NCBI RefSeq assembly: GCF_056712565.1
Contig: NZ_CM160072.1
DNA: 64,000 nucleotides
Direction: 5' to 3' (one strand)
How positions within the stretch are numbered: the first letter of the stretch is position 1; each line of letters starts with the position of its first letter. Shown piece by piece: positions 10,796-11,236 of this stretch. The notes under the pieces are model-generated. The model searched no databases and was not told the DNA's origin. It was given only the letters and a program-made list of their open reading frames with translations. The position numbers were made by a program, and so were the translations under genes.

Positions 10796-11236
10796 ATGAA
10801 ACGACTTCTGCTTTTGACGGCACTCCTGCCGTTTGTCGGCTTTGCACAGCCCATTAATACTCTGAACAACCCTAACCAGCCGGGATATCAGATCCCCAGC
10901 CAGCAGCGGATGCAAACTCAAATGCAGACGCAGCAAATCCAGCAAAAAGGGATGCTGAACCAGCAACTGAAAACGCAAACGCAGCTGCAACAGCAGCATT
11001 TAGAAAACCAGATAAACAATAATTCTCAGCGGGTGTTGCAGTCACAGCCGGGGGAGCGAAATCCCGCCCGGCAGCAAATGCTGCCCAACACCAACGGCGG
11101 GATGTTAAACAGCAACCGTAATCCGGATAGTTCGTTGAATCAGCAGCATATGCTGCCGGAGAGGAGAAACGGCGACATGCTGAATCAGCCCAGCACGCCG
11201 CAGCCTGACATTCCGTTGAAAACTATTGGGCCGTAA
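10796..11236 (+). CDS. yhhA: Secreted Gln-rich low-complexity protein (DUF2756)
   Basis: 146 aa with signal peptide ([17 protein letters not shown]) and a Q-rich repetitive body; matches YhhA. Confidence 0.85.

Follow-up and report, generated by a model that had tools for sequence, protein, structure and literature searches.

How is a small secreted protein to be understood when glutamine (Gln) accounts for about a fifth of its residues: as a low-complexity chain whose repeats are free to drift, or as a protein in which this composition is held in place? The question is raised by yhhA, a gene at 10796..11236 on the plus strand of a 64,000-nucleotide stretch of DNA (contig NZ_CM160072.1 of NCBI RefSeq assembly GCF_056712565.1), which as a whole is called the window here. 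A first-pass annotation of this DNA, made from the letters alone, had described the product as secreted and extremely Gln-rich with short QTQ/QQ repeats, had proposed an intrinsically disordered or repeat-driven function, and had suggested that the nucleotide repeats could cause length variation between strains. We are highly confident that the locus encodes a real, Sec-exported and RpoS-linked small protein of the DUF2756 family, which combines a conserved Gln-rich predicted helix with disordered, motif-bearing tails. According to the family alignment and the structural model, the Gln-rich stretch is a conserved predicted helix and not a drifting low-complexity repeat.

The Gln-rich core and its tails

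The extreme composition was confirmed. The Gln-rich strings quoted in the first-pass annotation are present, the whole protein contains 29 Gln (19.9%) and 18 Asn, and no other of the window's 67 open reading frames (ORFs) with 140 aa or more reaches its Gln fraction of 0.199; the second highest value is 0.097 and the median 0.042. Residues 19-146 consist of 21.9% Gln, 14.1% Asn and 10.9% Pro and have no Cys, Trp or Phe; the mature part, if cleaved after A17, would comprise 129 aa with 22.5% Gln.

Conservation was determined from an alignment of 40 YhhA homologues reaching down to 35% identity. The best conserved and ungapped segment of the family is the Gln-rich core (residues 34-83; 10895..11044, plus strand), with a mean gap fraction of 0.004 versus 0.19-0.25 in the tails, and the indels between genera fall in the C-terminal tail. 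Invariant or nearly invariant core positions are P34, Q37, R38, Q40, M43, Q46, Q47, Q49, Q50, L54, Q56, Q61, Q65-Q67, L69 and Q72, with M43, Q47 and Q50 invariant among the aligned homologues. Supplied with the same alignment, AlphaFold2 (AF2) predicted a single continuous 50-residue alpha-helix over residues 34-83, with block means of the predicted local distance difference test (pLDDT) of 82-91. Outside the helix the model is unstructured, with pLDDT below 50 for residues 87-145 and an overall predicted template modelling score (pTM) of 0.26. A profile search of the PDB with YhhA yielded no relative with a solved structure (best E 1.6), and Foldseek found no fold match for the model in the PDB (best E 9.1). 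What was found is a long predicted helix and no globular fold.

The suggestion of disorder stands for both tails, which look disordered by pLDDT (residues 87-145) and by hydropathy, and does not stand for the core. The mean hydropathy of mature YhhA is 0.344 (a mean Kyte-Doolittle value of about -1.4, derived from this normalised figure), below the Uversky boundary of 0.424 and on the unfolded side of the charge-hydropathy plot. One could go further and regard YhhA as wholly disordered and acting in bulk through its composition, be it as a hydrophilin that holds water, as a crowder or as a reserve rich in nitrogen, with neither a specific structure nor a partner. The hydropathy value would suit such a protein, as would the pLDDT below 70 of about 60% of the residues, the abundance and stress induction described below, and the rare alleles without 10-50 core residues that natural isolates keep. 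Against it speak the confident AF2 helix, the fixed length of the core and a conservation that is position-specific down to 35% identity (M43, Q47, Q50, L104, M119, L120), and we consider it unlikely, though not to be dismissed.

The N-terminal tail (residues 18-33; 10847..10894, plus strand) has a conservation of 0.72 and no secondary structure in the AF2 model. The C-terminal tail contains two copies of a repeat of about 24 residues, QQ(H)MLP-x3-4-NG-x-MLN (residues 92-115 and 116-140; 11069..11215, plus strand), recognized by local alignment, in which 2 of 2000 shuffles attain its score of 42, and by underlying DNA repeats (D2, D5) with a spacing of 72-75 nt. Exactly one unit of this repeat is missing from the 122-aa allele P0037 of E. 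albertii. The Met-Leu pairs of the tail are nearly invariant in the DUF2756 alignment (M103, L104, M119, L120, L129). The protein ends in the motif PLKTIGP (11213..11233, plus strand), which is invariant in E. coli alleles and conserved in other genera. Since PLKTIGP is also kept where yhhA and ugpQ do not overlap, for example in Buttiauxella with its 92-nt gap, its conservation is not a by-product of the overlap with ugpQ. A change in this part of the protein is known from E. coli C41(DE3), in which a C-to-T substitution at nt 290 of the coding sequence (CDS; window about 11085) replaces Pro by Leu in the conserved QQMLP motif; it is absent from BL21(DE3) and C43(DE3) (PMC4632034).

The conserved Met residues could alternatively point to a Met-based copper or silver binder or an oxidant sink, comparable to the disordered periplasmic proteins SilE and PcoE. 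Mature YhhA has seven Met, several of them invariant or nearly so (M43, M103, M119, M128), together with a conserved H118, and it would likewise be periplasmic, partly disordered and predicted to be helical. Nevertheless, no metal-binding family was matched in Pfam at E <= 1, there are only two His and no Cys, the Met residues stand in Met-Leu pairs and not in MxxM or MxxH motifs, and the expression literature surveyed holds no copper- or silver-linked expression of yhhA. This makes metal binding very unlikely.

Identity, export and expression of YhhA

The yhhA CDS (ATG start, 146 codons plus stop) was taken from the ORF list, where its coordinates agree exactly with those of the first-pass annotation. 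The product matched Pfam DUF2756 (PF10956) over profile positions 1-105 of 105 with 202.4 bits (cut-off 21, E 1.6e-60), and the equivalog NCBIfam NF007675 (PRK10350) with 264.8 bits (cut-off 136), residues 1-146 aligning to profile positions 1-145 of 145. Besides DUF2756, hmmscan against Pfam at E <= 1 returned only chance matches to CemA and ThsA_Macro (each E 0.12), and an Rfam scan of 10400-11700 on both strands gave no match at E <= 1. The gene name proposed at first was right: identical DNA is named yhhA, 'DUF2756 family protein', in RefSeq, with ggt (divergent) and ugpQ (convergent) as its flanks. The window protein and the K-12 allele have equal length (146 aa), differ by one amino acid and have the neighbours ggt and ugpQ in common. 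The gene thus belongs to an established family and had been annotated before.

In E. coli, yhhA was matched in 5,424 of 5,426 complete genomes, always on the chromosome, and is present in K-12 MG1655 as well as in BL21(DE3). Outside this species the family is narrow. A HMMER pass over 1.84 billion representative proteins retrieved no more than 65 clusters at E <= 0.001, a good number of which are fragments, and all homologues with a named organism belong to Enterobacteriaceae (Escherichia, Salmonella, Citrobacter, Enterobacter, Yokenella, Phytobacter, Buttiauxella and Dryocola). The order ggt / DUF2756 / ugpQ is retained in Buttiauxella and at the locus of a homologue with 46% identity; a 36%-identity homologue on a short contig retains the convergent ugpQ-like (GDPD) neighbour, ggt not being visible there. 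Moreover, a comparison of six full-length E. coli alleles shows the gene to be under purifying selection, with many more synonymous than non-synonymous codon differences (9:1 between window and K-12, 14:2 between window and O157). A collection of 15 billion proteins was reported to lack YhhA in the exact form of either the window or K-12, though it does contain a close representative (P0005, 97% identity, 220 members); this absence may be a quirk of gene calling or indexing.

By sequence rules, the N-terminus has the features of a Sec-type signal peptide and of a substrate for signal peptidase I. It begins with MKR (two basic residues), continues with a hydrophobic stretch and has G-F-A at positions -3 to -1, followed by QP. 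The putative signal peptide would thus span residues 1-17 (10796..10846, plus strand) with a predicted cleavage at A17|Q18, and A17, Q18 and P19 are conserved across the family alignment. Secretion, as first proposed, is in line with this signal peptide and with published detections of the protein in extracts of the surface or periplasmic type. YhhA was among the 15 most abundant proteins of a surface extract of Shiga toxin-producing E. coli (STEC), beside the periplasmic HdeB, PsiF, ZraP and YmgD (PMC9731836), was detected in Salmonella Infantis proteomics together with YahO, PsiF and Spy (PMC4265081), and was found in an E. coli strain with extended-spectrum beta-lactamase under beta-lactam stress (PMC9927464).

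A strong Shine-Dalgarno sequence, GAGGAGGA (10782..10789, plus strand), can be read upstream of the start codon, and its AGGAGG is conserved in the spacer alignment. Further upstream, 27 nt before the ATG, a sigma-S-like -10 sequence GTAAACTTAA (TAAACT followed by TAA; 10760..10769, plus strand) marks a candidate yhhA promoter. Sigma-S promoters have a -10 element of the TATACT/CTATACT type, followed by TAA. E. coli, Buttiauxella and the 46%-identity locus share the sequence TAAACTTA without any difference, where the 36%-identity locus has CTACACT; we infer that the conserved upstream element TAAACTTAA represents the -10 element of yhhA. A strict scan for sigma-70 promoters gave no match in the yhhA upstream region. 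The divergent ggt-yhhA spacer contains another block, TAAGCCTGGT-TA-AAC (10711..10727), conserved in E. coli, Buttiauxella and the 46%-identity locus, which is a candidate regulator site or ggt promoter.

Published data point in the same direction. With RpoS holoenzyme, a peak in the ggt/yhhA spacer was obtained by SELEX-chip (systematic evolution of ligands by exponential enrichment, read on a chip; PMC5493296), and yhhA is listed among the RpoS-regulon genes induced after cold downshift (PMC4057180). Its expression rises along with that of rpoS as O157 enters stationary phase (PMC2241611), and likewise after an acid shift (PMC2270276) and under several stresses in a meta-analysis (PMC9501238), and inhibition of LolCDE raises its expression 5.6-9.9 fold (PMC5105897). 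On these data and the conserved sigma-S-like -10 sequence, yhhA is placed in the RpoS general-stress regulon.

Export and regulation also bear on a quite different role, proposed in bioRxiv 10.1101/364117, where YhhA is treated as a validated type III effector of enteropathogenic E. coli (a second-hand claim) that would mimic the S/TQ substrates of ATM kinase in host cells. We regard this as extremely unlikely. YhhA has a classical Sec signal peptide, the gene is co-regulated with RpoS stress genes, and its presence in K-12 MG1655, BL21(DE3) and nearly all complete E. coli genomes means that it is not confined to strains with a type III secretion system; it is a core syntenic gene with a fixed chromosomal slot also in non-pathogenic genera of Enterobacteriaceae. 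Detection in culture supernatants would be expected anyway for an abundant periplasmic protein.

Length alleles and the ugpQ overlap

The short QTQ/QQ repeats of the first-pass annotation exist at the DNA level as dispersed and imperfect repeats (9-24 nt, 67-93% identity), not as an array: Tandem Repeats Finder returned no array on yhhA even at a minimum score of 30. Relevant to length variation is the repeat family D1, direct repeats of the form GCA(A/G)AC(N)CA(A/G) at 10912, 10924 and 10975 (within 10912..10984, plus strand; MQTQ/TQTQ codons), where most of the rare indels begin or end.

The length of the gene is nearly invariant. A 601-nt query was covered to at least 80% in 5,421 of 5,424 complete E. 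coli records, and in an evenly spaced sample all 39 full-length rows spanned exactly 601 nt. With a 241-nt query over the Gln-rich part, the 59 full-length sampled rows spanned exactly 241 nt without exception, so that 98 of 98 evenly sampled complete-genome rows keep the query span; only 20 records lay in the 90-95% identity band of this shorter query. Variants come to light in a large protein collection, which holds in-frame E. coli alleles of 96-165 aa. According to a 27-sequence alignment their indels all lie within residues 32-116, mostly inside the helix. Eight length alleles were checked in DNA, where they show the normal ggt/ugpQ context and occur in 15, 10, 5, 5, 4, 4, 2 and 2 contigs.

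All eight events are bounded by direct repeats of 5-11 nt, scored against the closest full-length allele with at most one mismatch on account of single-nucleotide polymorphism backgrounds. These breakpoint repeats average 9.0 nt versus 4.2 +/- 2.1 nt for random in-frame events, a mean that none of 20,000 null sets of eight reached. Examples are GCA(A/G)AC(N)CAG at CDS nt 117, 129 and 180, GA(C/A)TCAGCAA and CA(A/G)CAGCAT, and three of the events duplicate 30, 33 and 51 nt perfectly in tandem. Repeat-bounded breakpoints are the signature of replication slippage or misalignment, and the repeats are far shorter than assembler k-mers, which would argue against assembly artefacts. To count carriers, eight 44-mers across the junctions were used; no 28-nt word of theirs occurs in the six full-length panel alleles. 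Among 5,426 complete genomes one of the eight variants was present, the +30-nt duplication, in three STEC genomes, including strain 2013C-4187 with yhhA annotated at 471 nt; eleven further matches end at a junction and come from wild-type alleles with a different background.

The expected length variation therefore exists as slippage-type alleles with repeat breakpoints, at a negligible frequency. A stronger version of the idea would make yhhA a contingency locus, at which the repeats render the length hypervariable and thereby create functional or antigenic diversity. In its favor are the in-frame alleles over the whole range of 96-165 aa, some of them in up to 15 independent assemblies, with breakpoints in short direct repeats; with no tandem array, an equal span in every sampled complete genome, the tested variants in so few genomes and a core of fixed length across genera, we see next to no room for it. 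There was no sign of the length variation being used, and the alleles look like very rare slippage products, that is, mutational noise and not a functional switch. A loss of another kind was noted in E. coli A16 from an otter (NZ_CP028758.1), where a deletion at 3097-3913 takes the 3' parts of both yhhA and ugpQ and where ugpE and ugpA are annotated as frameshifted; the whole yhhA-ugp region of this strain thus appears to be decaying.

At its 3' end, yhhA (plus strand) overlaps the convergent ugpQ (minus strand) by 14 nt (11223..11236, from the ORF coordinates), and a terminator scan found no terminator-like site after yhhA on the plus strand. The pair is among the candidate excludons that ExcludonFinder drew from RNA-seq coverage (PMC12288877). 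In Escherichia, yhhA transcription could act on ugpQ in antisense. The locus might then be mainly regulatory, transcription into ugpQ repressing that gene and the protein being secondary, for which the overlapping ends, the missing terminator-like site and the listing as a candidate excludon can be adduced. However, YhhA is abundant and under purifying selection, and the overlap is absent in other genera, where gaps of 36 nt (36%-identity locus), 92 nt (Buttiauxella) and 697 nt (46%-identity locus) separate the genes and the protein is still conserved. An antisense effect cannot explain why the protein is conserved in these genera, with the genes 36-697 nt apart, and a primarily regulatory locus seems improbable.

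Several observations concern the surroundings of the gene. In comparison with strain FDAARGOS_536, the window lacks 1 bp of ggt (8943-10676, minus strand) near 9301, and the gene is thereby broken into two ORFs, 9198..10703 and 8944..9303. The deletion recurs in none of the complete E. coli genomes (the best matches are 99.7% identical, with 302 nt versus 301 in the window), and the split ggt is either a strain-specific pseudogene or a sequencing error. Compared with FDAARGOS_536, the yhhA region (10700-11300) is 100% identical and the adjoining ggt differs at about 60 of 1,800 positions, which suggests a recombination boundary near the ggt-yhhA spacer (about 10631-10700). A SELEX-chip peak of the flagellar sigma factor (heading 'flagella-', intensity 18.1) lies inside ugpQ (about 11223-11966), between yhhA and ugpC (PMC5493296). 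Beyond ggt, the closest reference has in the region corresponding to window positions of about 6700-8170 the Hcp1-family type VI secretion gene tssD, after it yrhA, and next the pseudogenes yrhD (internal stop) and yrhB (frameshifted).

Possible role and comparison with known systems

Taken together, the explanation that we somewhat prefer sees YhhA as a hydrophilic, mostly unfolded periplasmic stress protein with a conserved helix, in which the rare slippage alleles are noise. Once exported and cleaved at A17|Q18, mature YhhA (129 aa) would consist of three parts: the conserved N-terminal tail, the long Gln-rich helix of residues 34-83 and the disordered Asn/Gln/Pro-rich C-terminal tail, which would bear the two QQ(H)MLP...NGxMLN copies and end in PLKTIGP. 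It would work in the periplasm of stationary-phase or stressed cells, very hydrophilic and mostly unfolded, which is the weakest step. The position-specifically conserved helix and the Met-Leu motifs may be contact sites for a partner, so that YhhA would not be an enzyme but a protectant or binder similar to hydrophilins. At the DNA level, the short dispersed CA(A/G)-rich direct repeats would occasionally misalign and give rise to the rare in-frame deletions and duplications. The specific proposal, a hydrophilic protectant or binding protein that serves stationary-phase cells in the periplasm and makes its contacts through the helix and the Met-Leu motifs, is a tentative one.

Several points weigh against this explanation. 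We infer both the cleavage at A17|Q18 and the periplasmic residence from the sequence. The high pLDDT of an isolated helix can mirror helical propensity only. Homology offered no clue to function, neither through the profile search of the PDB nor through the Foldseek fold search. The Gly content of 5.4-5.5% (7 in 128-129 mature residues) is below the 6% of the hydrophilin definition. Fourier analysis revealed no significant amphipathic, heptad (3.5) or hendecad (3.67) periodicity in the helix: for residues 36-83, in the band of 3.4-3.8 residues, the hydrophobicity power was reached by 635 of 5000 shuffles and that of conservation by 1154 of 5000. Finally, an AF2 model of a helix-(GS)15-helix construct with a paired alignment, judged on pLDDT and pTM, kept both helices with pLDDT reduced to 60-66 and a pTM of 0.30. 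A hendecad (11/3) pattern had been seen by eye (M43, Q47, Q50, L54, L58, Q61, Q65, L69, Q72); it was not significant by Fourier analysis.

The Fourier analysis and the model of the tandem-helix construct also bear on self-association of the helix. Coiled coils can arise from glutamine-rich segments, and curli subunits contain Q/N-rich repeats. The long predicted helix, rich in Gln and Asn, might accordingly be expected to assemble with itself into a coiled coil or a Q/N-type fibre in the envelope. The missing 3.5- and 3.67-residue periodicity and the loss of confidence in the tandem-helix construct mean that neither self-association nor a defined binding face is supported; in addition, there is no tandem repeat, and Pfam at E <= 1 gave no curli or other fibre family. 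We therefore judge self-assembly to be a quite unlikely role and retain the hydrophilic, mostly unfolded stress protein as the preferred reading. A more far-reaching version of it, in our view rather doubtful, is that yhhA is a young gene, restricted to Enterobacteriaceae and born in the ggt-ugpQ gap, whose abundant and conditionally folding periplasmic product binds and protects envelope components in stationary phase by means of the Gln-rich helix and the Met-Leu motifs. If this were true, YhhA would represent a novel kind of protectant or chaperone in the periplasm, one that has no relation to Spy, HdeA/B or OsmY.

The results matter little beyond a tidy annotation, and nothing in them will surprise a specialist. 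Their modest additions are that the Gln-rich stretch is a conserved predicted helix, that the length alleles look like very rare slippage products and that the family is confined to Enterobacteriaceae in a fixed slot. yhhA is one of the remaining core genes of E. coli without a function, and since its product is abundant and RpoS-controlled, it would be worthwhile to define what it does in the envelope of stationary-phase cells.

Among known systems, hydrophilins and proteins similar to the late embryogenesis abundant proteins resemble YhhA in being very hydrophilic, largely unfolded and induced by general stress or in stationary phase. The hydrophilin definition of Garay-Arroyo et al. from 2000 is said to require Gly >6% and a hydrophilicity index >1. 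With an index of about 1.4 YhhA exceeds the second value; it differs in its lower Gly content, its export to the periplasm and a composition that is rich in Gln and Asn and not charged or rich in Gly. Q/N-rich coiled-coil or prion-like segments are comparable in composition and in the long predicted helix, whereas YhhA is a bacterial, periplasmic protein with position-specific conservation and without coiled-coil periodicity or support for pairing. Like Spy, CpxP and ZraP (LTXXQ), YhhA is small, Sec-exported, predicted to be helical and induced by envelope stress, and it is co-detected with ZraP, PsiF and YmgD in extracts; unlike them, it has no match to the LTXXQ family (Pfam, E <= 1) and shows one predicted helix with disordered tails in place of a helical bundle. 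From YhhA of E. coli K-12 and the DUF2756 family the window protein shows no substantive difference: it is a member of that family.

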